A stretch of DNA of 64,000 nucleotides from Azolla caroliniana (Eukaryota; Plantae; Polypodiophyta), in assembly GCA_043228905.1 (NCBI GenBank), contig JBHGNT010000010.1, forward strand, positions 4,216,001-4,280,000, written 5' to 3'. The translations under genes and the position numbers were made by a program. Under the pieces are notes generated by a model. The model did not search any database. It had not been told where the DNA came from and was given only the letters and a program-made list of their open reading frames with translations. Every line of letters begins with the position of its first letter. Within the stretch, counting starts at the first letter, position 1. Shown here in pieces: positions 11,890 through 59,016 of this stretch.

Positions 11890-12991
11890 ACGATTCTTAA
11901 TGTTATGTTACTAAGAACATTTTAGTCCATTCTAGGAGTGTTAATCTTGGCCTCTATTTGTTATGACTTTCCTATTCACCTTCTAGAAACTTTTAGGTGG
12001 TTCTCTTTAACGGCCAATTGTTCATACTCTACCCACATGTTTTGTTATCAAGGAGATTCTCGGCCTTCATGTCCCAACCGGTGGTGACTACTCATGGTGT
12101 TAACTGTACTATAGGAAACCACATAAAGATAATAATGATGATATTAATAATAAAACTTCAATGTTTTAAACTTACTCCTTACACATTCTTATAAAAGGAA
12201 CAAAATGTGACCTAAATTACATAAATATTCTAATATTGTCCTATAAATATACATATGTGATACTTCTCATAAGTGATGACGGGGAAAATAGATTGGTTCA
12301 GACAATGTTTGCCTTTCAAGTAGTTGGACGGCTTATCGAGTGTGAGAAATGACACATTCGCTTCCATTTGCAAAAGACAAAATTCAATCCACATGGAATC
12401 GATAGACAAATGCAAGTCTTCTGTCTGAATGATTACACCAACTTCAACCATGTTTTTTAGGTAAAACAAAAATATGAATCACTCTTTAGTATTTGTCAAA
12501 CATAACCCTACCATTAAGTAGATGATTTCAAGGGTTCATTATTGCTTATCATTTCCTAATCAAATTCATAAAGAGTGATAGTGGTACAAATATTTTAGAT
12601 GAAGCATGAATTCAACATTAGTAAGATAACTATCTACCAAATCATTTTGTTGAGCGGCAAGCTCAACTGGAGCTGGATCGGCTGAATAAGCCGGAGCCGG
12701 TAAGCGAGACGGATCGGGCGAAACGGATCGGTATTACGGTGAGCAACCGAACCGGCAAGCAGTGGAGGCCGGGTGCAATGGTTCTCCTTTCTAGAGAAAC
12801 CGGATCAACCAAGAGTAGTCGAAACTGGAGACGACACTCCTCACCCAATCGTGCACGTCGGAGAAGTCCCTCTAAGCCACGTCGGACAGAAAGGGAAGCT
12901 GATGAACGTATTACACGTTCCGACAATCACGAAGAACCTGGTGTCCGTCGGTCAGATTGTCGACCAGGGGATGTAGGTGCGGTTTACGCAC

Positions 12992-18471: not shown

Positions 18472-18476
18472 CGCAC

Positions 18477-21400: not shown

Positions 21401-22241
21401 TCGGCAAGTTGCCGACATCTTCACCAAGCCGCTCGGATCGGACAAGTTGCAGCACTTTACCGACATGCTTGGTATTCATCATCTCGACGTGCCGCACTTG
21501 AGGGGGAGAAGCAAGGGCAAAGTCTCTACCGAAACGGGCAAAGGCCAAAAAACTGTTGAACCCGTCGGTAAGAGGAGAGCCGGAAGAAGAGGAGACAAGA
21601 AGATGAAGGAAGCCGAGTCGACGAAGGGAGTCGACACATCCGAACAGGTCGGAGCAAGCGGCTGTGAAGAAGAGTTGTGCACTCAGGAAGAGAAGTGCAT
21701 GCTGTGCGGAGGTCATCACGACGGTATTGACCATGATGCAGAGTCGAATGAAGAATTCGATTTCGGTTCACCGGCTGAAGAAGCCGAGGGAAACATGGAG
21801 AAGGCCAAGACTCGGAAGTGGTCCGATGTGGTGAGAGGCCTGAAGTCGGAAGTCGAATCGGAGTGTACCGATTCGGACAAGAGCTGGAACGAGTCGGAGA
21901 CAGCTGACTCGGATCAACAGATGGATCCGGATGAGTCGAATCGACTGAAGGCCAAGGGGACACGGACACAACGGAAGTCGATGCCATCATGGGAGAACCG
22001 ACGGATCGGCAAGCGCCGGAGTCACAGCAACGTGAGTGCTGAGATGGGCCTATTGAGCAGACATGCCGACCGAGAGGGTCGAGGCGCGCAGAACCAAAGG
22101 GGTTGCGGCAAACGGGACCGGACCGGACGAGGAGCGCGAGCAAGGCGGAGTGACGCCAGGAGAAGTTGGTTGGAAGAACCGACTGCCATAGAGGTCGACA
22201 CTACGACCCCACCTCAGGTTGAACTTGAGGGGGAGTGTTGA
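18477..22241 (+). pseudogene. Copia A pol (IN-RT-RNase H plus C-terminal extension)
   Basis: [58 protein letters not shown]; stop TAG at 19179-81; the ORF runs through the PPT and stops inside the LTR. Confidence 0.92.
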
Positions 22242-22563
22242 GCGGCAAGCTCAACTAGAGCCGGATCGGCTGAATAAGCCGAAGCCGGTAAGCGAGACGG
22301 ATCGGGCGAAACGGATCGGTATTACGGTGAGCAACCGAACTGGCAAGCAGTGGAGGCCAGGTGCAATCCGTAACCGGAAGTCCAATCGGAAGCCTAGTAT
22401 AGGATAGACTACTAGGTAGCTACAGTCTCGTAGTAAGTGTAAGATGCTTGTGTGAGCATTGAAGTACATGGTACTTCTGTCAGTCCCAAGAGGACTTGTA
22501 TAAATAGTGCTACTTAGCACAGTGTGTGTACAGAGTTTTGATATAATTTTGAAATTGTGTTCT

Positions 22564-22616
<53 letters not shown>

Positions 22617-24219
22617 TGTTCTCTGTTTTACGCTTCCGCAAACATTTACGTTCACACATTTAAAACATTATGAGATCAATCCCAATCATTCTTATTCATA
22701 ATTAGTTATAAGGACAAGCTAGTCATTATTCTATAAGCTTTATTGTTTGTTACATAATATGCATGCGTTGAAAGAGCTCTTGTTGCTACCTTTGTTGACC
22801 CATCTCACCATATGTGATTACAAAGAAAAAATTGTCTACATGGACATTTCTTGAGAGTACCATAGAGGGAAACAAAACCTTTCACTATATGCTCTTATAC
22901 TTAATGATAACCTAAGATTTTATTAACTCTTGTGCTCGTGTTCAAATATCACAAAATGTACTAATTTAGTAGATGCAACTACCAAATGTAAAGGTTGTGC
23001 ATAGGTTGATTTTTTAATGCATGAATAAGGAGTCGCGACATTTTAGTCTCCATTGAATGCATAAATCATGAGTCGTGACATTCTAGTCTCCATGGACAAT
23101 CCTTTTAGTCTACCCATTCTAAGTATAGGAGTATTTTGGTAGTGCATTTAAAAATTACGCCTATTTTGTTTCCTTTATGATGCATATTTTTTGTTCTCTA
23201 GTTTAAAAGTTAGGAGGTATTCTAGTAACTAAAAAACCAATATAGAGATGCTTCTATCAAGAGTTATAAAATGGTTGATTCTTACTATTGAGTGGCGACG
23301 TGCTCAGCAAAGCACTTTACTTAGACAAATACCGGTCAACCTGTTCGCCTTTGGAGGAGATAGGCTACATGCAATTTATGGAAGTTCAACTAAGTAGAAA
23401 GATAAATAATTATCAATCAATTTTTACAAACAATTGGATCTTCATTACTATTGTTTTACATGTCTAGATATTGTTCACAACATTTGTAACTACATTCTAA
23501 ATGTTTTTAAGTGGATGATGCCCAAAAATGGATGTTGGTACCAATAGAACTTATGGCTATATGGTACATCTACATACCTCACACACACACATGTTAGAAA
23601 TATTGAGAATCGATTAGATAGGTACATAGAGTTACAACTACAGAGATGGGATATATGAAAACAAAACTTCTATTACATATGAGAGTAGCTGACAATGGTA
23701 GTTTTCCCATGCACTTAGCTTAGATAGGATATGGACCAGCTCACTACAAAATTAGTGTGGACTGATAATCAAGCCAACCACTGTGAAAAGAAAGTAGATT
23801 GCTTTCTATGTTTGGTCTAAGTATAACATTAAATGTGCAAGTGAATTGATAGTAGTGGAGATATTCCTTTTCGGTCAATTGATTTGTCATTTAATATGAC
23901 CAACTCCCTAGGTACAGGCTATTGCTAGATAATACTTATCTTGAAGTCAATGACGCATACTTCAAGACTAAGTACATCGTAACTTGCCCACAAAATATTC
24001 TAGTTGCCTTGATTAGCCAATCCTACTACCTATTTCTCTCTTTCCTAAATACATTGTGTCCTACACATCTACGGTTTCCTAGAGTAACACCTTATCGACC
24101 CATATAGTCGAGTTGCACACTAGCCACTCCTCATTTGGGGCACTACCACAAAATGTGCACTCTAAGAGCACATATGGGGATAGATTTACAACTTGGGGCT
24201 GATCATTGATTATATCTAA

Positions 24220-25200: not shown

Positions 25201-28200
25201 TCATCCCCTTCCAGAATCTGGGGAAACAATGATGGGTATAACTGTCTTTGTAGAGGGCTTGTGAGCTCGTGTTTGCCACCGTGCACTATGCTTGGCATAA
25301 AATGCACGCAAGTGAGGAATGACTTTCTCGCTCAGCTTTATATTGATGAAGAAGATCAACCTATATGCAAATATATTTGCAAACACCATGGCATTGTCCC
25401 ACCACATATTCCAACTCAAATCAATCTGGAAGTTCTCCCTCAAAACTTGCTCCCCAGAGAGAGGTGGGAGTAAAGGGCTTATGTTGTCGAATGTAAGCCC
25501 CAGCAAGTCGTTTTTATATTGCCCCTGTACGTAAATACAATTCATTTGATATGAGCATATTGTTCCTTTGGATTGACTTTTAAGCAGATTCAAATTTCTT
25601 AAACTGAATGTACACATTGAAATTCCTTTAATTGAATGCACACATTGAAAATTCCTTAACTGAACGTACACAGATTCAAAAAATTTATCGATTGAAACAT
25701 TCGACAACCTGTTATAATTATATGTACCTGCAATGCCCAATAGTTGTAGCTCATGTATGATAGTGGATATCTCCAAACCACCTTTGGCAAGTCATTCGGA
25801 AGCCGAAAGAACCCAGCAACTAACATGAACATACCCTGATCAAGAAAGAGCAATGATGTGTTCAATACCCACAGAGGTTTAGGAACAAGCATAGAAAGGT
25901 TAAATATGATCTTTTACTTACCATTAGACCAGCCCCACAGATAATCCCCATAAGAAAGTTTGGGACTATACTTGCAATGGCCATCATCAAGCTTTCTACC
26001 ACTGTAATGCATCCAAAGAGGTTGATGATAAAGAATATATAGTGGCTCAAGCCAGGATGCAGTCCAGCCATAAAATAGCATATCGTTCCAGTTGCAAAAG
26101 CTATAGCAAACAAGAAAGGAAGAGAAGACAATGTGTTCGCAATCACAAAGGAGAGCACTCCATAATGCCCATTCAATCTCTCCCGATGAAAAACCTGCCA
26201 AGATTAAGAAAGTTTTTCCTACATCTCCTTACAAATAGATGTAGACAAAGAGTATATACTAAATAACGTTAACTCACCTTCATGTCCTCTATAAAAGATG
26301 GGAAGCCACCAATTGACATGAAAGTAACGAAACCAGAAACAAATGAAGTGCATGCACCTCTTGCCTGTAAATAAAATGAGTTTTAACATTTGAAAAAGCT
26401 TCGAATATGTCAACTCGAGTTTCAATATGATACACAAGCAAAGGCCCTTACCAGTATAGAGCTATAAGATGTCCCAACCTTATAGTAAAGGCTTCCAACA
26501 CTTATGGCAACAATTATGTATATTATGAGTCGAAACCAGTAATAACCAACATCTCTACTCATGTTAATGAATGAACGCATTGTCAGCACCTTCGATTGCA
26601 TCCAAAAGCTTGCTAAACTCCCCCTAGAGTCGAGGAGTGTGCCTTTCTGCAAAACAAAGGCACAATTCATGTTCAAAAGTATCACATTAAGTTAGAAATC
26701 AAATAACAAAAACAGAAAGTAGTGTGCAAAGTCTTGGAGTAAAACTACTTACAACTTGAGAGATCTCATGGATCCTGGAAGCAGTTAGGATTGCATGCTC
26801 TGAGTTGCTATAAGCATTCGTCAATAGCTCAATGATTTCAGAGGTCATAAGTTTCGATGATGCATCCACGATACCATTTACCTGTAAAACAAAAAAGAGA
26901 AAATTGAATATCACCAGGTGCATGGGTGCCTTGAAATACAGCAAAGCAGGACAGAGACATCACCCTGTGTCTTAGAGAGCTTTTTTCAGTTGGCTTTACT
27001 CTATCAAAATCCGAATTGACACATCGAAGAAAGTGATCAGAAGGATTCCGCCTTGGTGGACAAGGAAAACCTGAATCAGCAAAGAACTGCAAAATAGGCA
27101 CAATATGGTCACAAAAAACATCAGAAAAGACCCACAATTCAAGAACAAATGTCTCTCATACATTCTGGACACAATGTTCATCAAACCTCATGAGCACTAG
27201 AGGCTTTCCCGAAGTAGATCGTTCTACCACCTGACAACAGGAAGAGATTGTCAAAGAGTGCAAATACTTCACTACTGGGCTGATGGATGGAGAAGATAAC
27301 GGTTCGACCATCGTGTGAAAGGCCTCTCAATGTTTTCAGAACAAAGAAGGATGCCGCACTGCAAGGAAAGAAGATAAGTTGAGCTAAAATGCAATGGGAA
27401 AGGATTATAATTACGAAAAGAATGTCAAATCTAAAGCAATGGTTCTAATATTAATAGATTCACTGTAAAACACATTCGTATTTTAACTTTTTGATGATTT
27501 TGTACCAGTTAAATAGTACTTTTGTGGCAAAAATTTTACTTTTCCGTACAACAGTTGACTTTACAAGATCTTCGATGACACATCCCTCGTAAAAGAGAAT
27601 TCTAACAAATGTGAATCATTCACACTACCACAAGATACATCACCACCTAAGTCAAGAATTTGTCCATTGATTACCAAAGCAATATATATAAATATACCTG
27701 TCAAGCCCACTAGTGGGCTCATCGAGGAAGAGAAGCCGAGGTCGGGTAAGGATCTCTAGAGCAATGCTCACTCTCCTCTTTTCACCACCACTAAGACCGC
27801 GTACATGCCAGTTTCCGACAGGTGTATCAGCACAGTCCTGAAGACCCATCTCAAGGATAGTGCTCTCAACAATTGTATTTTTCTCTCTCTTTGGCATTTT
27901 ATCTGGCAAACGAAGATGGGCAGAGTAGTAGATGGTCTCTCGAACAGTGAGAGTTCCAAGCAGTGTATCTTCTTGAGTGACATAGGCCTGCATTCATTTA
28001 TTTAAACATGAAACAAATGAATGAATGCATATCAGCATGTTTTTAGCAACACCTTATCACAATCATAGTTGATGATGCAGGCTTATCTCATCACAATTCA
28101 CAACACTTTAAACTCACCGCAGAACCATACGAAAGCTTCGTGTGTTGCCCATTAACAAGAACTTGTCCAGACACCAGAGCATTTCTTGCAAGGCGCCCTA

Positions 28201-28875
28201 CACATACATAAATATGTCTTAGTAAGAAAACTCATCCGAATTGACCAACAAGAGCAATGAACAAGCCATCCAGTTGATTGAAGGAGAGTGACAAATTTAT
28301 GAGAATTGGTTATAAAGGGGAATAGAAATTTTCATTTGAATTGTTCATAGAGGAGTAATAATGATAAAACCATCATCATGGGTATCTAGGAATTTAGTGC
28401 TGATTTCCATTGGAACAGATACATTCTCTGTTGAATTAAAATAAAAAAAACATGTGCAAAATATTTTGTTATAAGTTTCTCTTTGGGAATTTGTGTATGT
28501 CAATTTTCTATCAGATCAATAATTAGATTGGTGATTGAATGTGGTCAAGTAAGTACCTGCAAGAGCATCAAGAAGGGTTGATTTCCCCGACCCTGAGGGG
28601 CCCATGATGGCCGTCATAAAACAAGGCTCTGCATATCCACTCACATTCTCGAGGATTGGATGAATTTCTCCTCGACCATTGGAGACTCGAACAGTGAGAT
28701 CTTTCCAAGTGAGCCAGGCCGAGGATTCGGTTCCAGTGGTCATGCCATGGGGTTTCAATTTCTTCACATTCTTCCATAGTGTCTCACTCAAAGGGCTCAA
28801 CCGAGAGAGGTAATGCGATGGAGAATGATGGGTCCTTCCCGAAACCTGTCGGGTAAGGCCATTCGGTGCTTCCAT
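25201..28875 (-). CDS. ABCG11: ABC transporter G family half-transporter (WBC type, ABCG11-like), 11 exons, 699 aa
   Basis: GT-AG exons 28557-28875, 28118-28197, 27698-27987, 27187-27358, 26964-27086, 26753-26881, 26452-26646, 26278-26364, 25922-26194, 25728-25835, 25201-25524 sum to 2100 nt in frame. Walker [10 protein letters not shown], signature LSGGEKRRV, Walker [44 protein letters not shown]; NBD-TMD order. Exact orthology is inferred. Confidence 0.93.
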
Positions 28876-28939
28876 GGAAAGCAAAATCACACAAAGCAAC
28901 TACAAACAACAACAACAAGATGTTGGGTAAGGCTATTGG

Positions 28940-37642: not shown

Positions 37643-39140
37643 GTAAATGGCATTTGCAAGGCTTAATTACCATCAACACAATTATTAATGGTTTTTTGTT
37701 AATCAATAAGCACATGTTCACCATAAGGTATCTTGTTGTGCAACATACTTCTTTACAATATCAATATGCATCTTTTACTCTTGTAAAAACAAAGATTTTA
37801 GTACAATTCGAGTTCATGTAAACCCTAAACCTCTTTTATTTGAAAAAAAAGAAGATTTATAAAGATGAACTCCATACATTGTATCGAGTTGATATAAAAA
37901 ATAGATTTTTTATCACAATTCCATACAATGTATCAAATTCATGTTCAATGTTTTTTTCCCGGATTTAAAAAATAAAAAATAAAAAAATTTGAGTTTGAGT
38001 TGATGAAAAGACCAGATTTTTCACCACAATTCAGTACAATGTATCGTGTTCATGTTTAAAGTAATTTTTTTCAAAATTTTTTGATTTTATATTTTGGAAA
38101 AAAAAACTTTAAACATGAATTCGATACATTGTATCGACTTGTGATGAAAACTTTGGTTTTTCCATTACTTCAAATTAAAAAAAAAAAACAAAAAACCCCA
38201 AAATAAATAGAAAACAAATCAAATTTGGTTTTTAAAACCCCCCCCAAAAAAACTTTGAACACGAACTCGATACAATGTATCGAGTTGGTCTTGAAAACTC
38301 TGTTTTTCAACACAATGTATCGAGTTTGTGTTGAAAAGTTGACTTTTCCACATGAACTCGAAAATCTGACTTTTTCATGTAACTCGATACATTGTATCGA
38401 GTTCGTGTTGAAAATCTAACTTTTTCATGTAACTTGATACATTGTATCGAGTTCGTGTTGAAAAACTGAATTTTCTAGATGAACTCCATACATTGTATCG
38501 AGTTCATGTTAAAAAAAAATTTTAAAATTTTATTGATTTTTTTTCTATTTTTTTTGGGTCATTTTTTTTTGTTTTTTTAAAAATTTGAAGTGATGAAAAA
38601 ACCAGAGTTTTCATCACAAGTCGATACAATGTATTGAATTCATGTTTAAAGTTTTTTATTTCCAACCCCCGCCCCCCCCCCCCCCAAAAAAAATAATTCA
38701 AAACAAAATCAAAAAAATTACTTTAAACATGAACTCGATACATTGTATTGAATTGTGGTGAAAATTTTGGTTTTTTCATCAACTCAAGCTTGTTTTTTTT
38801 ATTTTTTTAAATCCGGGGAAAAAAACTTTGATCATGAATTTGATACATTGTATGGAATTGTGATGATTACTCTGTTTTTACATCAACTCGATACAATGTA
38901 TGGAGTTCATCTTTATAAATCTTTTTTTTTTCGAATAAAAGAGGTCTAGGGTTTACATGAACTCGAATTGTACTAAAATCTTTGTTTTTACAAGAGAAAA
39001 AGATGCATATCGATACTGCAAAGAAGTATGTTGCACAACAAGACACCTTATGGTGAACAATTGAAGGTGTGCTTCATTGATTAACAAAAATCCATTGATA
39101 ATTGTGTTGATGGTAATTGAACCTTGCAAATGCCATTTAC
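37643..39140. repeat. ~1.5-kb imperfect palindrome built on a self-palindromic motif
   Basis: gtaaatggcatttgcaagg... (37643) mirrors ...ccttgcaaatgccatttac (39140); about a dozen variants of AACTCGATACA(A/T)TGTATCGAGTT; centre ~38392. Confidence 0.92.
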
Positions 39141-44199: not shown

Positions 44200-45436
44200 A
44201 AAGAAACATAACTCAGGTGACAAGGAAACATGCAAGAACGTAGGGTGGGATATTAATAGCTACACATATAGATGGCCATGACCTAGGGCACCAATTCTAC
44301 ATTGGTAAAGTTTTGGACGTGGTGATGCATTAAACCTTTGTAATACATCTATCATTGACATTAGTGAGGTGGATATCATTGTGTATGACTTTACACTAAC
44401 AAAAGTTGGATGTTTAAAGACGACAACAATAGACATAATAAAAGAGATATTACCAAGTCTAGAAGATATCTCAGATTGAAGGCGAATAATGATTTGATTG
44501 GTACATTTCAAAATGAGGAGGAAGAGTCACAATTGTATATTAGCCATAGTACTGATTCTCATGAAAGGAATGATGATAGTGATGCAAATAACTCCTAAAT
44601 GTATTTTTTGTGCAACGATATGTAACAAATTTAGACAACATTTTATCGAATGAAATAAAAATGTTGATTGTTGGAGACGGTTTATGTCATTGCCACTACA
44701 AGATCAAGCCAACATACTCCATGGCATCATGGGCAGATGGAATATGAGATCGGAAATCAATAATGCTCTACTGGTTAGGGAAGCCGCTACTCATAAGACG
44801 ACAATGGAGAAATGGATAGGCTATGAGGAGGAGGGATCTTTGATCCCGAGAGGTAGGGTATCACCAGACAGGATCGAAGGCTCTGAATTTCGAGACACTG
44901 AGACACCAACACAAAATAACGCAAGTATACTCGCGTATACTGGTCATAAATGGATTGTAGATCTTGATCCGATCAAAGTACAACCTGATTGGCACATATG
45001 TACTCATGAAAACACATGGCTACGTAAGGTCAGTTGGGACCCTTTGCAATGGACATGGCAGCAAGGAAGCAAACCTATCCCTTTCTTCCAATTCACAACT
45101 AGATTGGGTCGCCACATCCTAGCTGCTCAAATTGCCCGAGAGTCGGTTGCTGCAAAGGTCTGGCACACATATCAAGTTCCTCACACAATTGTCACCAAGT
45201 TTTGGCAGAAAATCTGGAAACAACAACACGCGAGGCGAATTACCACATTCCAATGGCTATTAATACATAAGTCACTACCGGTGGGAGCATGGCAATGTGG
45301 GAACCTTAGCCCTCCTAATTGTGTAGAGTGTCCAAATGCAATAGAATCAATACGACATGCTTTGTGGGACTGCCTAGCGTCCCATCGAATATGGCGGGGG
45401 GTTGGCCGCTTGTTGCAATTATGCCAGGTGTTGTCA

Positions 45437-45508
45437 TGATATAGCAAGACTCGAACCCATGACCTTATGTTATATGGGTCGAACTCTTGACCATTATACC
45501 ATCCATTG
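45437..45508 (-). other. tRNA-like Pol III (A box/B box) cassette in U3 of the chromovirus 5' LTR; also at 50597-50668 and 58586-58639
   Basis: Minus strand TGGTATAATGGT-CAAGAG...AGGTC-ATGGG-TTCGAGTC with exact T8-to-T54 spacing. Confidence 0.6.
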
Positions 45509-45926
45509 TAATACGTAAAATATTATTTTCATTTAAATTTTATTATAGGAAATTAATGTATATTCCAGATATCTCTAGAACATTCTAGAAGCTTCAGGAC
45601 TCCTCCTGAGAACACTATAAAAGGAGGAACAAGGCATTATGTTGAACCAAATTGGTTCAATGCTAGTCTTAAGCCTCATAGCCATCTTGTACTTTTCATA
45701 TAATATATCATATGTTATCATCATCTCTCTCTCTCTCTCTCTCTCCTCTTCTCTTTCCTCTCTCTCGGGAGTCTTACGCAATCCCGTCCTCGTAGTACTA
45801 ATAGTACTTCCCTTCTCTAGTACTAATTCTCTCTCTGTTTTAGTACTATTCCTTACAGTTTGAACCGATTTTTCTCTAGTCTTCTTTTCGGTTTCCCTCA
45901 TCCTCTTACCCCTTTTTTCCAATACT

Positions 45927-48900
45927 ATGGCAACTGTTAGCGCCCAAGAATATCAATCTGTTTTCTCCGAGCTAGAGGGTCTAAAAGAAAAATTTGTTGC
46001 CTTCGAACAAGAAAACCAACGATTGTTAGGGGACCTTCAACAAATCACTCTAGAAAAACAGTAAACGCAACAACAACATGGGGAGTTAGCATTACGTGTA
46101 CAACAACTCGAAGCAACCATCGTAGCGTTGCAACAACAAGGATCAAGTCCCCAAGGATTTCATAAAGAGCCCAAGATTGGACTTCCTGTGAAATTCGATG
46201 GAACGCAATCGCAATTCAGGGGATTTCTTAATCAGGTACACTTAGTCATTCAAATGCATCCTTCCCGATACCCCAATGATGCATCCCGAATCAGCCTAAT
46301 AGGCACGTTGCTTAGTGGCTCAACCTTGGCATGGTTCGCTCCGCTTCTAGAAAAACAATCACCCTTGCTTAATAACTTTGACGACTTTATTAGAGAGTTT
46401 AAAGCATGCTTTGGAGATACAGACAACATCAGGATGGTGATTAACAAAATCCGACGATTGCGTCAAGGTGATCGTCCAGCCTCTGCCTACGCGACGGATT
46501 TCCGTCTACTCGCCTCAGATATCCCCTAGGATGATCAGGCACTAATGGAGCAGTTTCGCTACGGCCTGCAAAACGATGTCAAAGATTTACTCCTAACCTT
46601 CCCCAAAGAACCAAAGTCTCTTACAGAGGCAATCAGTCGAGCGGTCCGATGCGACAACCGCCTTTTCGAACGGCGTTCTGAACGTCAATTACAAATACCA
46701 CGCCCTAGGCCAGAGCCCACATATGCCTCAGTCGCGGCTAAACCGTTTGCACGAGACGTATCTCAAACAAATACTTTGACACCGATGGAGATCGACACCA
46801 TGCGTCGATGTGGCCCGTTATCGGAAGACGAAAAGCAACGCCAACGTGCAAATCGATTATGTCTTTATTGCAGTGGACCAGTGCATATCGCAATCAACTG
46901 TCCCCATAGGCCAAGAAGACAGGTAAATCAAATCGTAGCCTGTACTAAACCTGAGTCTATTCTTCCCTTAGGAGTGTCTGATAGTATTAATAGTACTAAT
47001 AACCCAAGTATCTCAAATAAATTTGAAATCCTTAGTCAATTAGAAGAAGAGTTAAATGACTGAGTCCAACCAAAATAGGAGCCGTTTGGTTGGACAGCCC
47101 TAGATCTGTACAACCCATTAGTGGTTCCATTCCCTCAAAGCAAGTTAGCAATGTGTTCTTAGCCCAAGTCAGGGTTAGTACTAAAAGTACTCCTCCAATA
47201 CACATCCTAGCACTTTTAGATTCCGGAGCCCATTCTTGTTTCATGGATCAAAATTTTGCCCAAGCTTCTCAGATATCCTTAAGAAAACTTCCTTGCCCCG
47301 CATCTGTAGTAGTCATTGATGGTCGTCCCATTGCTTCCAGGAATATTGTAGAAGAGTCCGAACCCATTTAGGTTGTCCTAGGTAGTTTTGTGTGTGTGGT
47401 ATCATTTAATATAATTAGTAGTCCAGAGCATCCCATTGTCCTGGGATTACCTTGGTTTGAATTACATAATCCAGACATAGATTGGAGAACAAGAGAAGTC
47501 TGGTCTCGACAACCCCTTGAAGAATCTACTCCATCAACTACGCGAAGAAGGACACAAGGAGGCAATGTTTCTATTTGCAATATCAGTACATCCTTCCAAC
47601 AATATTAAGAAGGAATCCTTAGTGCAACTTCCGGCAAAATATCATCCTTATGCCGATGTATTTGACAAGGTAAAAGCCGGTACTCTTCCTCATCATCGTC
47701 CCTACGATTGTCCCATTGATTTACAACCAGGAACAGAGCCACCATGGGGACCAATTTACAACTTGTCACCAACCGAGTTAGAAGTCCTTCAAGCCTACAT
47801 AGAGGAGAATTTGGCAAGCGAGTTTATTCGTCATTCGAAATCTCCAACTGGTGCACCTATCTTCTTTGTCAAGAAGAAAGATGGATCACTTCGTCTCGTC
47901 CTTGATTACCGCAACTTGAATAAGGTCACCATCAGGAATAGGTATGCACTTCCTCTTATATCAAGTCTTTTAGAGCGAGTAAATGGTGCCAAGTTTTTTA
48001 CAAAAATCGATCTATGAGGAGCGTATAACCTCGTGCGGATCCGACCGGGAGACGAATGGAAGACCTCCTTTCACACGCAGTATGGGAATTTCGAGTATAC
48101 CGTTATGCTGTTCGGTCTAACCAATGTGCCCGCAGTCTTCCAGCACATGGCAAATGATATATTCAGAGACCTCTTGGATATCTGTTTGATCATCTATCTG
48201 GATGATCTATTGATTTATTCGAAGACCCAGGAAGAGCATGATTCTCATGTACTATTAGTACTAAAACGACTCCGAGAGAATGATCTTTATGCCAAACTAG
48301 AAAAATGTAGCTTTGACTGCAAGCAAGTGGAATTTTTAGGCTACGTCATCTCCTCAAAGGGCATCTCCATGGATCCAGCTAAAGTCAAAATTGTGCTAGA
48401 GTGGCAAACTCCACGTTCGTTACGAGATGTACAATGTTTCCTAGGTTTTGCTAACTTCTACCGCAAGTTTATACAAGATTACTTGAAGATTATTTTACCT
48501 CTCACATAGCTTACGAAGAAAGGACAAGCATTTCTTTGGTCCAATGAAGCGGAGATGGCTTTTAGGCATCTTAAGAAAGCCTTTACATTAGCTCCTATTC
48601 TAGCTCATGTGGATACAAACAAACCATTCATCATGGAGGCCGACACATCAGATTTCACCCTCAGTAGCATCCTTTCTATACAAGGAGATAAAGAAGAGTT
48701 ACATCATGTGGCTTTCCATTCACGCAAATTTGATGCTGCGGAAATAAACTACGGGATACATGACAAGGAGTTATTAGCCATCGTGGATTCATTTGTGCAA
48801 TGGCGGCACTTCTTAGAGGGCTCTCCACATCAGGTCATCATCTTCAGTGATCACAAAAACCTTGCTTATTTCCAGAACGCTCGTGTACTAAATCGAAGGC

Positions 48901-50600
48901 AAGCTCGGTGGGCCCAATTCCTCACATGTTTTAACTTCAAAATCACATATCGACCGGGGAAGCAGCAAGGAAAAGCAAATGCACTATCGCGGCGTTCATA
49001 TCTTGCACCTCATCCTGGTGATCCAGTGTTTGATAATCAAAAGCATGTAATCTTGGGACCAACACGTTTGCACACAACGCGGATTTTTCACACTCCACTA
49101 GATTCCCGGATTATCGATGCCATACGTGCTAACCTAAAGACAGACAGTTTTGCTCAAACCATTCTAGCGCACATTGATAGCTCTCGGGCATCCTGTTCCC
49201 AATGTCAACAACCAGGTATGGACTACCGACAATTCGAATATCATGATGGTTTATTGTTCTTTAAAAAGCTCGTATATGTTCCCGATTGCTCCTATCACCT
49301 TCAAATCGTCCAAAATTGTCACGACACCCATACAGCGAGACATTTCGATAGTACAAAGACGTTGGATCTAGTTCAATGATCCTTTTGGTGGCCCCATATG
49401 TGACGTTTTGTCGACGACTACGTTCAGACCTATGATGCTTGCTGCCGAGCAAAGATGCCACGACATCATCCATATGGCTTGTTGGAACCCTTACCGATTC
49501 CAAGTAAGACGTGACAGTCTATTTGTCTTGATTTTATCACAGATCTGTTGGTCTCGAAGGTTTTCGATGCTATCTTAACCGTCGTTGATCGATATACTAA
49601 GATGACATAGTGAGGAAACCGTCGTCCTTGTCATGCGTGAGGTATTTCGGCACCATGGCCTCCTAGACAGTATCATCAGTGATCGAGGACCTCAATTCGT
49701 CTCCAAATTTTGGAAGCATCTTTTCAACATGCTCAAGCTCTCTTGTAACCTCTCCTCCAGTTACCATCCCTAGACCGATGGGCAAGCGGAACAAACAAAT
49801 CAAATGCTGGAACAATACCTCTGGTGTTTTCTGAGTTATCAGCGGGACGATTGGGCTGATATTCTCCACTTTGCAGAGTTTTCTTATAATAGCGTTATTC
49901 ACTCCTCGACTCGGGTATCCCCATTTTACGCTTATACTGGTTCTCATCCTCGCAGGTCTGTGATCGACACCCCGGAGCTACCTACCAATCCTCGTGTCGA
50001 GGATCATTTGGAGAGGCTACGCAAGATCCAAATGGATCTCTCTACTCATCTTCGTCATGCTCAACACACACAGAAGACTTATGCGGATCATCATCGGCTT
50101 CCCTCCTCTTTTGTCATCGGAGATCGAGTATGGCTCTTACGTCGTTACATCAAGACTACTCGACCGTGCGACAAGTTGGATTATCAATGACTCGGTCCTT
50201 TCCGTATTACCGGTAAGGTTAATGATGTCACATTTCGTCTTGATCTTCCTCCGCATCTTCAGATACATCCGGTCTTCCATAGTTCTCTTCTTGAACCTTA
50301 TAAATCAAACACTATTCCCGATCGTGTTACACCGCCGCCACCCCCGCTTGAGTTAGACGCCGGCCTGGAGTATGAAGTTGTTGCCATCCTCGACTCCAAA
50401 TTTGTTTACAACAAACTTTATTATTTGGTCGATTGGCTTGGCTATAGTCCGAGTGAACGTACTTGGGAACTCATCGAGTATGTCGCCAATGCTCAGGATC
50501 TTCTTGCTAATTTCCATCGACAGTATCCGGACAAACCCGGTCCTCAATCAACGCCGACTCGTTACACTCGTCGTCTTAAAGGGGGGGATAGTGTCATGAT
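45927..50600 (+). pseudogene. Chromovirus gag-pol (Gag, PR, RT, RNase H, IN, chromodomain) with several stops and frameshifts
   Basis: [89 protein letters not shown]; chromodomain EYEVVAILDSK..YYLVDWLGYSPSERTWE at ~50368-50530. Confidence 0.92.
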
Positions 50601-52255
50601 ATGGCAAGACTCGAACCCATGACCTTATGTTATATGGGTCGAACTCTTGACCATTATACCATCTATTGTAATATGTAGGGTATTATTTTCATTTAAATTT
50701 TATTATAGGAAATTAATGTATATTCCAGATATCTCTGGAACATTCTAGAAGCTTCAGGACTCCTCCTGAGAACACTATAAAAGGAGGCACAAGGTATTAT
50801 GTTGAACCAAATTGGTTCAACACTAGTCTTAAGCCTCATAGCCATCTTGTACTTACTCTTGATATAATATATCATCTATTATCATCATCTCTCTCTCTCT
50901 CTCGTCCTCGCTATCTCTCTCTCTCTCGAGAGTCTTACGCAGTCCCATCCTCTTAGTACTAATAGTACTTCCCTTCTCTAGTACTAATTCTCTCTTTGTT
51001 TTAGCACTATTCCTGACAGGTGCAAGGCTCAATCAAGTGGGGAAATATATGTTTGGCTATCATGGCAGACCCCAGTTGACAGATACGAGCATCAGGAGGA
51101 GGGGATGGCTTTGGTGATAAAAGCACAAGAGGTTTTTTTCTCCACCATCGGCAATGTCCACTCAACTCCTCTTAATGACAAATCTCAAGTTGTGTTGGAA
51201 TTGGTCAGCCCAATAACTCTTTGGATTCTATGGAAACAACGGTGTAGACGGGTCTTCTCCAACCAAACCGCGCATCCAACAATGTTACCGCAAGAGATAT
51301 GGAGTGAAATTGTAGCCACTCTAAACATCCAATATGATGGCCTCAAGGGCAGTTCCGATGAAGTTGAAAGACAACGAATAACCTTCATCCAACAATGGTC
51401 GTCCTCTCCCTTTCTTGAGTCAGTGGGCATCCACATAAGATGGAATTATTGCGTCCCTACAGGGATTTGTACATAATCATCTCATTTGTAAAATTTTATA
51501 ACTAATGGAAGGAGTTTTTTTGGGGAAAAAAAAAATGTTGATTGTTTTGAAATCTTTCACTTATGATATCGTTAAGATCTAAAATACTACTAGTTGTAAT
51601 TTCTCCTTAAAAATACACAAAGTCACTTTTTGTATTTGGCCAAAATTTGGCATTTTTCAATTTTACCGAATGGTGAAAATTTTAGCTTTTTCATCAAGTT
51701 TTCGAGAACATGTGATACTGGTATCAAGGTGTTTTGTGGAATGGCAAAAAAAGCCCCAAAATCAGACGGAATATTCCTTATCCTTCCATTTGTGCGTAAT
51801 TCTTCCACTTGTGAACGCAAACGTGTTTTGGGGGAACCTGAAGGTCTTTGGCGCCAGCACCATAACCCAAAGTTGCAGCTCCGCCAAGAGTTCAACAATG
51901 TTTGACAAGGAAGAATGTCGGTCATTCACTATACCACGAAGATCAAGGAGATCTGTGACTCACTCGGCTCCATCAACGTGAATTTGGTGGACGAAGACGA
52001 GATGGTATAATTTTGTCTTAGTGGTCTAGCCCAGAAATATGGGTCGATTCGGACGGCAATCTGCACCAGAGAGAAGCCTCCATCATTTTCTGACTTGTAG
52101 TTGATGCTCCTTGTAGAGGAGAACCACACGGGTGCGTCAACGAGCATGCACATCGACAACAAGATGTTGTATACGGAGGCAGATAGGCCCCGTGATCGTG
52201 GTGGACGTGGCGGATTGAGACGCAATGGAGGTAGCCAACAAGAGCAAAACCAAAG

Positions 52256-52583
52256 TGTTGAGCGGCAAGCTCAACCGGAGCCGGATCGGCTGAATAAGCC
52301 GAAGCCGGTAAGCGAGACGGATCGGGCGAAACGGATCGATATGACGGTGAGCAACCGAACCGGCAAGCAATGGAGGCCGGGTGCAATCCGTAACCGGCAG
52401 TCCAATCGTAAGCCTAGAATAGGATAGACTACTAGGTATCTATAGTCTCGTAGTAAGTGTCAGATGCTCGTGTGAGCATTGAAGTACATGGTACTTCTGT
52501 CAGTCCCAAGAGGACTTGTATAAATAGTGCTACTTAGCACAGTGTGTAAGTGCAGAGTCTTTATATAATTTTGGAAATTATGT

Positions 52584-52614
<31 letters not shown>

Positions 52615-55600
52615 TGTTCTCTGTTTTACGCTTCCGCAAACACTTACGTTTACATGGTATCAAAGCGCGAGGGTTGAGAACCTCTTATGTAGACATTTAC
52701 TCTTGAGAAGAAAACCCTAACAGGTCGAAAACAGACACAGTAGAAGACATGGATAGAGGCATGGCTACGTCGCTCCCGGTGGAGAAGCTCGACAGGAGCA
52801 ACTACGCATCCTGGTCTTACAAGATGCACCAGTACCTGCTTGGACACGAGTACTGGAGTTATGTCGAAGGAGCGAATGATGCGGCGCCAGACTCGACACA
52901 CAAGGACTTCCCGGTATGGGAACAGGTGGCAAGCAGGGTGATGTACTGCTTCGCATCCAGTGTCGCCAAGACACCGAAGGATGCTTGGGGGAACCTGAAA
53001 AAGGCTTTCGCCGCAAGCACCACTGCCCGGAAGCTGCAACTCAGACAGGAGTTGAGCAATGTTCGACAGAAGAACATGTCCGTGGCAGACTACACGGGCC
53101 GGATAAACGAGATTTGCGACTCACTCGCCTCTATCAATGTTACCATAGAGGAAGACGAGATGGTGCAGGTATATCTCGGAGGCCTGGCGTCCAAGTTCGG
53201 AGCGTTCCGGACTGCGGTGTGTACAAGGGATACTACCCCCTCATTCTTCGACTTACAGTCGATGCTCCTTGTAGAGGAGAACCACGCCGGTGCATCTACC
53301 AGTGCATCCCCGGACAGCCGAATGTTGTACACGGGAACGGATCGGCATTGTGGGCGTGGTGGAAGAGGTGGGTCGGCACGCAATGGAGGCGGCCGGCAAG
53401 AGTAGGAACGGAGGCACTATGAGTGTGCCGACAGCAGTTCTGGGACTTCCACAAGTAGGGGGAGTCAAGGCGGTGCCGGAGGACGGCAAGACAAATCCGC
53501 TACGGAATGCTGGTACTGTGGCAAAAAAGGTCACAGGGAAAGCGAGTGCTGGAGAAAGCGTGCCGATTCGGACAAATCCGGATCCGGCAAGACCGGTAAG
53601 GATGGCCGGCAAAACTCGCACTACGTAAACGGATCAGGAGGATCCGGAACCGGAAAGGCCGGTAAGGGGCTAGCCTTGGTGATGAATCACAAGGCAAACT
53701 CAATGAAGAAGACCACTTTCAAAACGGAGGAAGTGTGGTATGTTGATTCCGGCGCGTCGAACCACATGACGAGCCACAAAGAGTGGTTCTCCTTTCTGGA
53801 GAAACCGGATCAACCTGGAGTAGTCGAAACCGGAGATGACACTCCACACCCAATCGTGCACGTCAGAGAAGTCCCTCTAAGCCACGTCGGACAGAAAGGG
53901 AAGCTAATGAACGTATTACACGTTCCGACGATCACGAAGAACCTGGTGTCCGTTGGTCAGATAGTTGACCAGGGGATGCAGGTGTGGTTTACGCACCTCG
54001 GGTGCTTCATTGAGGATGAGGGCGAAGTCATTGCGCAAGGGCGCAGAGACGGGAGGATGTTTATCCTCAACACCAATGACATTGGCACTGCTCTGTTCGC
54101 GAAACGACAGAAGGTCGAGTCGGACATCGACCTATGGCACAAGTGGATAGGCCATGTCAACTACCAGAGGCTTCAAGACCTGCAAACGAAACAAGTCGTT
54201 TTCGGTTTGCCAAAGTTTAGCGGCCGGAGAGCCGAAATTTGTGAAGCCTGCCAACTTGGGAAGCAACACCGGCTTCCATTCCCCACCGAACGGAACCGGA
54301 GTCGTAACAAGCTCGATCTCATCCATTCGGATGTGTGGGGACCGGCACAAAGTGTAAGCCTTGGCGGGAGCCGATACTTCATCTCCTTCATCGACGACTA
54401 TACTCGACATACTTGGATCTACCTCATTGAGCGGAAGAGCGAAGTCTTCGACTGTTTCCGGAGCCTCCAGAAGATGGTCAAATGCCTTCGGTCGGATGGC
54501 AGAAAGGAATATTTTTCCGACCAATTCACTAGTTATCTGCAGCAGAAGGGAATTCAGCGAGAGTTCAGCTGCAGATACACACCAGAGCAAAACGGTGTGG
54601 CCGAAAGGAAGAACCGGACACTCGTCGAAGCGGCAAGGACAATGCTGGAGGAGAAGAGCATGCCCCGGTTCTACTGAGCGGAGGCGGTCCAGACGGCCGT
54701 CTACATACAAAACCACATTGGTGACAAGGTGTCAGCTCATGAGCTGTATTTCAGGCGCAAGCCGAACTTGAGACACCTTCGGATATTCGGCAGCATAGCG
54801 TATGTGCATGTGCCGGATCAGAAGCGGAGAAAGCTGGATGCAAAATCGGAAAAATGCATCCTAGTCGGCTATGCTGAAGAGCAAAAGGGGTATAAGTGTT
54901 ATAACCCCCGGACGAAGGAAGTCCGAGTTAGCCGGGATGTCGAGTTCGACGAATCGGCATCCTGGTACTCCGTACCGACTCCGACTTCCGATCCCGACCC
55001 AATGCCGAAAGATCAAGCCAGTGAGCCTGAATCAGCCCTAGCAGAGGATGATGAAGCCGGGACTCAAGATGAGAGTCCGGAATCATTACGGTTGAGTGGA
55101 CCGAACGAGCGACTGAGTCGGTTGGACCAGTCGGATGAAGAGACGGCAAGTGGTGGAGACTCTGCCGTGCTCTCCCCGCACAAGAAACCGAGGAAACGGT
55201 TCACGCGCAAAGAGAAGGGGAAGAGGAAGATGCCGGAATTCGAAACCGGCAATGATGAGTCGGATCGGTGCATATCCGACTCCGGAAAAGAAAAAGGCGG
55301 ATCTTCGGCAACGAAGACCGAACTAGCCAAGAAGGGACTCAAATCGGGTGACGGTGCGTTGCGCCGATCAACCCACCAGAAGGATCCCGTCATGCGGTAC
55401 GGGTACAATGAATACATGGCGCATCATTATGCATACATGACTAAGGTGACAGAAGTGCGCGAGCCGGAGAGCTACGCAGAAGTGGCAAAGGACGCAAATT
55501 GGCGTGCCGCTATGGCCGAAGAAATGCGGGCACTCGATGCCAACGAAACTTGGGACCTAGTTGATCCTCCCCGTCACTGTAAACCGATCGGATGCAAGTG

Positions 55601-58059
55601 GGTGTACAAGGTCAAGTACAACGCCGACGGTTCTGTTAACTGGTACAAAGCCCGGTTAGTGGCGAAGGGATACGCGCAGACCCACGGAATCGACTACGAT
55701 GAGACCTTCGCTCCTGTGGCGAAGATGACGACAGTTCGTGTGGTACTGGCGGTTGCTGCGGCAAGGGGGTGGCATCTTCACTAGATGGATGTGAAGAACG
55801 CCTTTCTTCAAGGAGAGCTTGAAGAAGAAGTCTTTATGACTCAGCCCCCCGGATTTCACTCGGAGATGGACAAGTCGGCGGTATGCCGACTGAAGAAGTC
55901 GCTTTACGGCTTGAAGCAAGCCCCCCGAGCCTGGAACGCGAAGATCACGCACTGGTTGCGTAAGCTGGGGTTTGCTGTCTCTAAGTCGGACTCTTCGTTG
56001 TTCATCCGACAAGGCTCTGACGGTCCGGTATGTATACTCTTGTATGTGGATGATTTAGTTATCACCGGACCGGGTCTTCCCGAAATCAACAACGTCAAGT
56101 CCTAGTTGTCGGACGCATTCGAAATGAAGGACCTGGGGGACCTCCATTATTTTCTTAGGATCGAAGTGATCCGGACCCCCGACGGCATATTGCTCTCACA
56201 ACGACATTACGTGTTGAATATGCTGTATAAATTCGGCATGTCGGATTGCCGACCTGTCTCCACACCCCTGGATCGGAACCAGAAGGTCCGTCCCAACTCC
56301 GGACCGGCCTACAATGAGAAACGGTTACGACAGGTTGTCGGAAGCCTGATCTACTTAACCATCACCCGACCCGACATCAGCTATCCGGTCGGCATGGTAA
56401 GTCAGTTCATGCAGAAGCCGACCGTGGAGCACCTTTAATGCGCACAAAGAATATTACGGTATGTCAGCGGCACTAAGGACCGGGGACTGCTATACCGGCA
56501 AGGTATACCCGAAGAGCTTGTCGGTTACATCGATGTTGACTGGGCCGGCGATGCGTCTGATCGCCGCTCCACTTCCGGATACATGTTCTCCATAGGTAGC
56601 GCGGCTGTTGCGTGGAGCAGCAAGAAGCAGCCCATAGTGGCTTTGTCAAGCACTGAGGTTGAGTATCAGGCCGCTACCGTTGCCACTTGTGAAGCCATCT
56701 GGCTTCGGCGACTGCTGCGAGACTTGCGGATCGAGGTGCCCACCCCGATCCCGATTTACTGCGATAACATGAGCAGCCTGCAGCTCGCCAGGAACCCTGT
56801 GTTCCATGCTCGCACAAAGCACATCAAGGTGCACTACCACTTCGTGCGTGAGCGGGTCCTGAGCGGTGAAGTTGACCTACGGTATGTTCATACGGATCGG
56901 CAAGTTGCCGACATCTTCACCAAGCCGCTCGGATCGGACAAGTTGCAGCACTTTACCGACATGCTTGGTATTCAGCATCTCGACGTGCCGCACTTGAGGG
57001 GGAGAAGCAAGGGCAAAGTCTCTACCGAAACTGGCAAAGGCAAAAAAACTGTTGAACCCGTCGGTAAGAGGAGAGCCGGAAGAAGAGGAGACAAGAAGAT
57101 GAAGGAAGCCGAGTCGACGAAGGAAGTCGAAACATCCGAACAGGTCGGAGCAAGCAGCTGTGAAGAAGAGTTGTGCACTCAGGAAGAGAAGTGCATGTTG
57201 TGCGGAGGTCATCACGACGGTACTGACCATGATGCGGAGTCGAATGAAGAATTCGATTTCGGTTCACCGGCTGAAGAAGCCGAGGGAAGCATGGAGAAGG
57301 CCAAGACACGGAAGTGGTCCGATGTGGTGAGAGGCCTGAAGCCGGAAGTCGAATCGGAGTGTACCGATTTGGACAAGAGCTGGAACGAGTCGGAGACAGC
57401 TGACTCGGATCAACAGATGGATCCGGATGAGTCGGATCGACTGAAGGCCAAGGGGACACGGACACAGCGGAAGTCGATGCCATTGTGGGAGAATCGACGG
57501 ATCGGTAAGCGCCAGAGTCACAACAACGTGAGTGCTGAGATGGGCCTATTGAGCAGACATGCCGACCGATAGGGTCGAGGCGCGCAGAACCAAAGGGGTC
57601 GCGGCAAACGGGACCGGACCGGACGAGGAGCGCGAGCAAGGCGGAGTGATGCCAGGAGAAGTCGGCTGAAAGAACCGACTGCCACAGAGGTCGACACTAC
57701 GACCCCACCTCAGGTTGAGCTTGAGGGGGAGTGTTGAGCGACAAGCTCAACCGGAGCCGGATCGACTGAATAAGCCGAAGCCGGTAAGCGAGACGGATCG
57801 GGCGAAACGGATCGATATGACGGTGAGCAACCGAACCGGCAAGCAGTGGAGGCCGGGTGCAATCCGTAACCGGCAGTCCAATCGGAAGCCTAGAATAGGA
57901 TAGACTACTAGGTATCTATAGTCTCATAGTAAGTGTCAGATGCTCGTGTGAGCATTGAAGTACATGGTACTTCTGTCAGTCCCAAGAGGACTTGTATAAA
58001 TAGTGCTACTTAGCACAGTGTGTAAGTGCAGAGTCTTTATATAATTTTGGAAATTACGT

Positions 58060-58120
<61 letters not shown>

Positions 58121-58160
58121 TGTTCTCTGTTTTACGCTTCCGCAAACACTTACGTTTACA
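52256..58160 (+). mobile_element. Full-length Ty1/Copia C (same family as A), nested in D
   Basis: LTRs 52256-52654 and 57732-58160 (~6 substitutions plus a CT-tract length difference); TSD CAAAG; PBS TGGTATCAAAGC 52655-66; PPT GAGGGGGAG. Confidence 0.96.
52749..57737 (+). pseudogene. Copia C gag-pol with multiple in-frame stops
   Basis: Gag (EKLDRSNYASW, CWYCGKKGHRESEC), PR WYVDSGAS, IN, RT YVDDLV, RNase H; stops at 53403, 54675, 55782, 56103, 56436, 57570. Confidence 0.92.
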
Positions 58161-58554
58161 CAAAGGCATAGAGGAAGTGTCGACAAGAGTGAACCCTCCA
58201 CAAGCAAGGGGAGTTAGAATGGTGTTGGGAACTGACACAGAAAAACCAATACGGACTGCTGATATTGTGGCCGAAAGGGCCACAAAGAGAGTGAGTGTTG
58301 GAAGAAGAAATCGGATTTGGACAAAGTTGAATCAAGTCATGCCGATGGAGAAAGGCGGCAACAATCGCATTATGCTAAAGGCTCAAGGTGAGCCGGAACA
58401 GGCCTTGCCTTCGTCATGAAGTACAAAGCCAACTCGATGGCGGTGAGCACCTCGAAACCAAAGGAGGTGTGGTATGTGGATTCCGGCGCATCGAACCACA
58501 TGACAAACCATGAAGAATGGTTCTCTTATCTTGAGAAGCTGGAACATCCGGGGG

Positions 58555-59016
58555 TGTCATGATATGGCATGGCATGGCTCCAAAAGGATTTGGACCTATG
58601 TCCTTATGTTACATGGGTTAAACCCTTACCATTAAACTATGCATTGTAATACGAAAAATACTATTTTCATTTATTATTTCACTATAGCAAATTCATGTAT
58701 ATTCCAGATTACTCTAGAACATTCTAGAAACTTCAGGAATACTACTAACAATACTATAAATAGAGGCACATGGCATTATTCAGAACCAATTCGGTTCAAC
58801 GCCAGTCTTAAGCCTCCTAGCTGTTCTTGTATCCTTCTTCATATAATATACTTCTTGTTGTCATCATTCACTCTCTCTACTCTCTCTCCCCCTCCCTCGC
58901 TCCTTCTCTCCCCCTCTCGTGACTCTCACACACTTTTTCCCTTCTTAGTACTAATCCTCATTCTTCCCCTCTATCTTTAGTACTAATTCTCCCTGCCTCT
59001 AGTACTATCCCTGACA
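58555..59016 (+). mobile_element. Solo LTR (462 bp) of the chromovirus E family
   Basis: TGTCATGATAT...CTGACA; TSD GGGGG (58550-54, 59017-21); homologous to 45432-45857 throughout. Confidence 0.92.

Follow-up and report, generated by a model that had tools for sequence, protein, structure and literature searches.

Promoters derived from tRNA or 5S sequences have so far been described in the LTRs of tiny, non-autonomous elements, where they serve the transcription of the element itself. The closest known system, that of the Helenus TRIMs/TRIMp3, is of this non-autonomous kind: according to the available text of Kojima (2024, PMC10886601), its LTRs contain tRNA-derived segments in which boxes A and B are conserved, and the elements, which are 311-1,263 bp long, non-coding and tRNA-primed, are proposed to be transcribed from that RNA polymerase III (Pol III) promoter, their autonomous partners having to use Pol II. 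The same text mentions a resemblance to part of a tRNA for "not a few" Repbase LTRs but deals with the TRIMs alone; scattered autonomous cases may therefore exist. Cassandra and Ajax are further non-autonomous TRIMs, with a captured, 5S-derived Pol III promoter in their LTRs (available text of PMC10886601 and PMC12786077), and a 2025 review, in the part accessible, singles out Cassandra among plant LTR elements as the exception that uses Pol III (PMC12786077). Pol III miRNA cassettes are known from foamy virus and BLV, lying within the LTR in the case of simian foamy virus (PMC4378190, available text).

A second point of reference is provided by the Tcn1 chromoviruses, which the accessible parts of PMC2864245 and PMC6317226 describe as self-priming elements with an aromatic-cage chromodomain, separate gag and pol and a 5-bp TSD, and in which a tRNA-like LTR segment is not mentioned in those parts. 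They have been reported from mosses, Selaginella and fungi, and a PCR screen found none in the ferns it covered (PMC2864245, accessible part).

Element and cassette in the window

The fern element considered here lies in a 64,000-nucleotide stretch of Azolla caroliniana DNA (the window; Table 1). It shares with Tcn1, within the limits of the published descriptions available, the aromatic cage, the lack of a tRNA primer-binding site (PBS), self-priming, separate gag and pol and the 5-bp TSD; on these features and on a by-eye likeness to SM-Tcn1 it can be regarded as Tcn1-like, the tree mentioned below having been built without named reference elements. Pfam matches in it comprise Gag, RT, RNase H and the integrase zinc finger. 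The integrase ends in a chromodomain with the cage residues Y, W and W/Y, and PF00385 is present on the closest proteins. No tRNA-like cassette was seen by eye in the SM-Tcn1 LTR (PMC2864245, supplement S3). In SM-Tcn1 the sequence past the 5' LTR is, also by eye, complementary to a stretch of the LTR, suggesting self-priming, of which PMC2864245 reports no evidence.

Table 1. Coordinates of the Gypsy element, the solo LTR and their parts in the window
Feature	Position	Strand	Remarks
Gypsy element	45432-51018	+	5' LTR to 3' LTR; 5-bp TSD; nested in LINE
zf-RVT match of the LINE hosting the Gypsy element	44654-45436		zf-RVT
Left TSD GGTGT	45427..45431	+	right copy GGTGC, 51019-51023
5' LTR (TG...CA)	45432..45857	+	
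tRNA-like cassette, 5' LTR U3	45437..45508	-	tRNA positions 1-72 (45437-45508 = 72 to 1)
B box	45447..45457	-	positions 52-62; T54 at 45455
Variable-loop motif AGGTC	45461..45465	-	positions 44-48
A box	45491..45501	-	positions 8-19, without position 17; T8 at 45501
AT-rich tract (89% AT)	45509..45561	.	upstream of A box, between cassette and Pol II enhancer; predicted TFIIIB landing region
Heat-shock-element-type array GAAnnTTCnnGAAnnTTC	45578..45595	+	
TATA box of LTR Pol II promoter	45616..45622	+	
Self-primer	45649..45660	+	at predicted R start; complementary to PBS
Primer-binding site	45860..45871	+	complementary to the element's own 5' end
gag and pol	45928..50591	+	RT, RNase H, integrase, chromodomain (~50371-50533)
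Polypurine tract	50578..50588	+	
3' LTR	50592..51018	+	91.9% identical to 5' LTR
tRNA-like cassette, 3' LTR	50597..50668	-	T8 50661, T54 50615
Solo LTR of sister subfamily	58555..59016	+	TSD GGGGG; inside Copia element
tRNA-like cassette, solo LTR	58576..58646	-	T8 58639, T54 58594

The PBS of the window element pairs at 12 of 14 positions with its own sequence just past the TATA box, and in all five loci with an identified PBS 11-12 of 14 positions pair with the R start of the same locus; in the relative L007, PBS and R-start primer have changed together. Judging by this complementarity, the window element and its relatives are self-priming and have no tRNA PBS, and priming from the R start places the cassette in U3. 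The self-primer lies within a short inverted repeat (45640-45660; also in L010, L011, L012 and L015) and resembles a sense B box in several families (GGTTCAACGCC in L010-L012), not in L007.

As the original prediction had it, the start of U3 carries a tRNA-like cassette on the minus strand in both LTRs of the element, and tRNA numbering holds from the A box through AGGTC at positions 44-48 to TTCGA from position 54. Using a sequence-only tRNA profile (254 distinct phage-contig tRNAs, from 347 ARAGORN calls), the three LTR cassettes of the window, including that of the solo LTR, scored 28.5, 28.5 and 25.7 bits, which are ranks 2, 3 and 5 among 127,880 scored window positions, the best of 40 shuffled 64-kb strands reaching 24.4 bits. 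The top score (34.2 bits, position 1211) is an overestimate, since the A-box motif of that very copy had been used to fetch the training tRNAs. The A box of the window cassette is modest (5.0 bits alone), and the top score of three Copia LTRs in the window was 8.1 bits. The expected advantage over controls was obtained for these box-level scores and not for a full tRNA covariance model, which gives no score. The cassette is not a tRNA gene, as had been foreseen: ARAGORN called none in the 64-kb window and none in the 31 relative loci scanned, Rfam returned no tRNA match for 45400-45560 (E up to 10), nor for 15 loci or L077, and cloverleaf pairing is at the shuffled level. The solo LTR does keep the cassette, followed directly by a T4 run (58585-58582). 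Two details of the original description need a small correction: the B box of the solo LTR is degenerate and, at 76% identity to the element LTR, it belongs to a different subfamily.

The GAAnnTTCnnGAAnnTTC array is of the heat-shock-element type, and seven of the nine three-unit matches to such elements in the window fall within the three Gypsy LTRs (arrays at 45578-45595, 50738-50755 and 58717-58739). Both Gypsy insertions are nested in other retroelements, a LINE and a Copia element. The window also contains nested elements and LTRs of a single Copia family (12639-22658 and 52247-58162; ~95% identical over 4.2 kb), whose LTRs have no cassette, and an AT-rich foldback element of 1.5 kb (37643-39140) that has internal repeats as well as long inverted arms. 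An intron-containing ABCG11-like transporter gene (~25250-28900, minus strand) is closest to fern proteins and places the host among the ferns: it is 71-74% identical to most proteins from Adiantum, Pteridium and Ceratopteris (64% and 69% to two Ceratopteris paralogues), 67% to Psilotum and 62-64% to four angiosperm proteins, in a comparison without moss proteins.

Distribution and conservation among relatives

Relatives were obtained by a metagenome scan with an integrase-chromodomain alignment, from which the best 80 of 538 confirmed loci were taken. In a quick tree, the window element groups with 20 loci (SH-aLRT 86) amounting to about nine families; L067, left out because of its short coverage, was assigned by 77% identity and by its LTR. 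Of the best 80 loci, 54 have a recognisable LTR start with at least 90 nt, the other 26 not being evaluable. The antisense cassette, with T54 at most 60 nt from the LTR start, is present in 16 of the 17 evaluable clade loci and in none of the 37 others (best 80 of 538 loci; p = 0.005 by shuffling, the floor value), although the clade represents one origin, has a support of no more than SH-aLRT 86, and draws all its loci from one assembly series, so that these are not 54 independent observations. The cassette is a trait of this whole Tcn1-like clade; the earlier idea of an inherited trait, and not a single insertion, applies even more widely than proposed, since the clade comprises about nine families.

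In all 16 passing loci the cassette is antisense to gag-pol. The sole failing clade locus, L075, has a weak match to the clade-built profile (E 0.011), L030 has kept the B half, and the ten loci of a sister group (L019 and its kin) reached at most 10.6 bits, with no profile match at the LTR start. Strong matches to the cassette profile (E below 1e-7) are all located at LTR starts, none being free-standing with a tail and TSD like SINE2. Regarding coding capacity, cassette-bearing relatives have open gag and pol frames (431 and 1,203 codons in L001; 414 and 1,214 in L012) or open pol frames of 1,183-1,235 codons (L007, L011 and L015), and stops and frameshifts break both genes in the window copy. 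The proposal that a gag-pol-encoding Gypsy lineage bears a tRNA/SINE-type A/B cassette is supported. L007, L011, L015 and L023 read pol, LTR, gag with a single LTR, as collapsed repeat assemblies or tandem elements would. Contigs resembling the window LTR number hundreds to thousands in sequencing runs under several organism labels, and no relatives of the element were found among viral contigs. Tcn1-like elements appear to be abundant in a fern, the group in which the PCR survey, in its accessible part, found none.

Between-family identities were calculated from 33 between-group pairs of nine representatives. Identity between family groups is 0.88 at the ten tRNA-invariant box positions, and the same at AGGTC (positions 44-48), against 0.41 at fourfold-degenerate integrase sites; it falls to 0.36 in the spacer (positions 27-43) and to 0.31 at acceptor positions 1-7 plus 66-72, and positions 49-52 also differ from family to family. 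The contiguous 44-61 block is conserved better than the A box, the B-box CpG is retained in seven of nine representatives, and T35 and T37 are each kept in nine of ten. Within the subfamily, none of the 32 variants listed from four sequencing runs falls in 45432-45464 or 45490-45494, the placement being biased towards stretches where contigs match. Other families thus keep the boxes far better than neutral sites, as the prediction of conservation above background required, and the cassette is, on this evidence, under purifying selection beyond neutral expectation. Two trivial causes were considered and rejected: overlap with the pol frame, since pol of L001, like most of the close proteins, ends five bases into the LTR, and nearness to the LTR end, since the distance varies over unalignable sequence.

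The arrangement of the cassette is equally regular. An unanchored MAFFT alignment brought the boxes into register in all ten U3 sequences, and T8 and T54 are separated by 45-46 nt in 15 of the 16 passing loci (48 in one), i.e., A and B boxes stand at the tRNA-like spacing of a type 2 Pol III promoter. Around them, T54 lies 24-57 nt from the LTR start (range 33) and T8 lies 114-207 nt from the TATA box (range 93). Every family has an AT tract behind the cassette (79-91% AT), and the Pol II module beyond it differs by family, with heat-shock-type arrays in some and motifs rich in CATGCA/CACGTG in others. The enhancer types behind the same cassette separate L007 and L013 from L010-L012 and L015, the window LTRs having heat-shock arrays. 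Upstream of the A box, no TATA-like motif keeps a constant position. The pattern of conservation is that of a promoter, with a sequence like that of a type 2 Pol III promoter.

What could have been the donor? The window SINE, put forward for comparison, is not supported as the source: its head (1204-1275) has nothing beyond the boxes in common with the cassette (7 bits and E 2.6 with the cassette profile), and no donor isotype stands nearest among phage tRNAs (56-67% identity). This SINE is part of a pair of convergent tRNA-like heads between (GA)n tracts (1199-1410; T8 at 1211, plus strand, and 1389, minus strand), with a related repeat, 80-84% identical, at L008:281-538. A further A/B-box-like pair at 4721 (minus strand, 18.9 bits) has no other copy in the compared loci (best 80 of 538). 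In a distant chromovirus clade, L077:7106-7165 (plus strand) carries a sense tRNA-like head of 30.7 bits. The LTR has 68 bases in common with that of L074 and departs from it where the head begins; this looks like a fresh SINE insertion into one LTR, and as such like an example of the capture step.

Possible roles of the cassette

In its orientation the cassette cannot make genomic RNA, and must consequently do something else. We see about an even chance that a TFIIIC/Pol III promoter has been kept for a role at the DNA level, beside the Pol II promoter of the LTR. A single SINE or tRNA head would have inserted into an ancestral LTR and been copied to both LTRs by reverse transcription; TFIIIC would bind the A and B boxes and place TFIIIB on the AT-rich tract adjoining the Pol II enhancer, generating an occupied, nucleosome-poor site with the host chromatin of the flank on one side and the LTR promoter on the other. 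That site might act as a barrier or as a promoter opener, and short Pol III transcripts directed outwards would arise only incidentally. TFIIIC is described at chromatin boundaries in the available text of PMC8136502. In this way the elements would likely enlist RNA polymerase III factors for the protection or opening of their own promoter, the value to the element likely residing in the DNA and not in the RNA made. The DNA-level role is supported by the presence in the clade (16/17 against 0/37), by box identity above neutral sites and near-fixed spacing, by the persistence of cassette and AT tract in spite of the exchange of the Pol II module, by the failure to keep RNA features (cloverleaf, shared fold, constant terminator), and by the nesting of both window copies in other retroelements.

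Nonetheless, some features fit it poorly. TFIIIC tolerates variable spacing between A and B boxes, so the near-fixed 45-46 nt are left unexplained; AGGTC lies outside the B box and is as conserved as the boxes, which counts against a DNA-only role, as do the modest A box, the missing fixed TATA-like motif upstream and the retention of T35 and T37. Neither the fixed spacing, AGGTC, T35 and T37 nor pair 11-24 and the inner T-stem pairs are known to be required by simple TFIIIC binding.

The main rival attends to just these features: the Pol III promoter would be kept for its product, a short, loosely tRNA-like antisense transcript with a regulatory effect on element or host. It might serve as a decoy, give rise to small RNAs, or be antisense to genomic RNA at the 3' end of the latter. 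We consider this rather unlikely, even though it would suit the fixed spacing and the conservation of AGGTC, T35 and T37. Pair 11-24 forms in nine of ten representatives, with three pair types, the three inner pairs of the T stem are found in 8-10 of ten, and pairs changed on both sides number 16 against 12.6 shuffled (24/500); the residual 11-24 and T-stem pairs hint at a constraint on RNA. The antisense strands of the window and L001 copies, moreover, fold into a hairpin better than shuffles do (z -2.5 and -4.5), and foamy-virus LTRs encode Pol III miRNA precursors (PMC4378190, available text). However, the families have no common fold (z from -4.5 to +0.8), RNAalifold over the family representatives yielded 0 pairs, and the paired cloverleaf cells (50.5%) hardly differ from shuffles (48.7 +/- 2.3; 120 of 500 reach that value).

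Termination gives a similarly divided picture. A T4 run occurs inside the LTR in four of ten representatives and within the LTR or 25 nt beyond in seven, in agreement with a short RNA, but a T5 run is found inside the LTR in none of the ten. In the window element, the first T4 is 235 nt (5' LTR) or 1,292 nt (3' LTR) away from the cassette, so that the 3' end of a transcript would depend on the insertion site. Antisense firing from the 3' LTR into the integrase region, which had been proposed, is not borne out as a clade trait by the seven representatives with a nearby T4; in the window copy, the first T4 comes 1.29 kb into pol. With the cloverleaf lost, no conserved terminator and an element that self-primes, the cassette is neither a tRNA nor a primer, and cassette RNA as reverse-transcription primer was discarded, since it is the R start, rather than the cassette, that changes together with the PBS.

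Alternatively, the sense strand could be the functional one, the U3 end of genomic RNA pairing with host tRNA loops and thereby aiding packaging, dimerisation or strand transfer. HIV-1 reportedly provides a precedent with a tRNA-like stretch in its U3, U3 does belong to the 3' end of genomic RNA, the better conserved 44-61 block is contiguous, and a fixed length would suit colinear pairing. We regard it as improbable all the same: the element self-primes, with a primer that covaries with the PBS in L007 and a cassette that does not, the conserved positions are those common to most tRNAs (49-52 and 27-43 vary), no single isotype is nearest (judged on phage tRNAs only), and the acceptor-stem positions, the easiest to pair, are not conserved.

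Integration offers another, very improbable role, in which TFIIIC/TFIIIB on the cassette would tether cDNA or create target sites of the Pol III type, like those that tRNA genes offer to Ty3. The cassette lies only 24-57 nt from the U3 end gripped by integrase, and Ty3 is a known case of targeting to Pol III sites, in the literature text available. Nevertheless, the two insertions of the window have a LINE and a Copia element as their targets, no cassette of at least 19 bits occurs in the flanks beyond clade LTRs (363,806 bases, best 80 of 538 loci), and the element already has an aromatic-cage chromodomain for targeting. Last, the cassette could be what neutrally remains of an old SINE insertion, or could resemble a tRNA by chance; this is scarcely credible and largely refuted. 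L077 does show that a SINE-like head can enter a single LTR without becoming a family trait, but the clade cassette scores above all shuffles, keeps its B-box CpG and exceeds in box identity both neutral sites and the spacer that it encloses.

Going one step beyond the DNA-level role of a TFIIIC/Pol III promoter, the domesticated tRNA/SINE promoter could be a portable TFIIIC insulator, a constant Pol III module, facing outwards from the outer edge of the LTR, combined with an exchangeable, stress-responsive Pol II enhancer, which would keep the element inducible once inserted in silenced chromatin and scatter TFIIIC sites through the fern genome. This extension is tentative, and we hold it to be possible rather than probable. 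Every LTR and solo LTR would spread one such site, and the clade thus offers a natural test of two questions: how do heterochromatin-seeking chromoviruses keep their promoter usable? And do plant TFIIIC sites act as barriers?

Comparison with known systems

In the literature searched, which left most subscription papers outside its scope, no description was found of such a cassette in an autonomous plant LTR clade. PMC7466625, PMC5738225, PMC11181671 and PMC6786969 contain nothing on it in their accessible parts; the large supplements of PMC6317226 and PMC6786969 fell outside that scope and may bear on novelty. What sets the present case apart is a Pol III-type promoter sequence under purifying selection in full-length, coding elements.

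As far as the available texts allow the comparison, the fern LTRs resemble those of Helenus in bearing tRNA-derived sequence with conserved boxes A and B. Unlike Helenus, the elements of this clade are ~5.6 kb long, encode gag-pol, are self-primed and keep a Pol II TATA promoter; their PBS pairs with their own R start and is not of the tRNA type, and their cassette is antisense to gag-pol, and so unable to make genomic RNA. Cassandra, according to the descriptions accessible, differs in that its own 5S-derived promoter drives the Cassandra transcript. With foamy virus and BLV, on the available text, the clade shares the combination of an autonomous retroelement with Pol III units, although theirs encode structured pre-miRNA hairpins, whereas the fern cassette has no common fold and keeps tRNA numbering. 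SINE heads and TFIIIC boundary sites (PMC8136502, accessible part) are similar in their retained A and B boxes, decayed stems and possible boundary role; the fern head, in contrast, is fixed in an LTR, is moved by LTR reverse transcription and has no SINE tail. Classified by its sequence, the cassette of this clade is neither a member of Helenus, nor a SINE, nor a tRNA.
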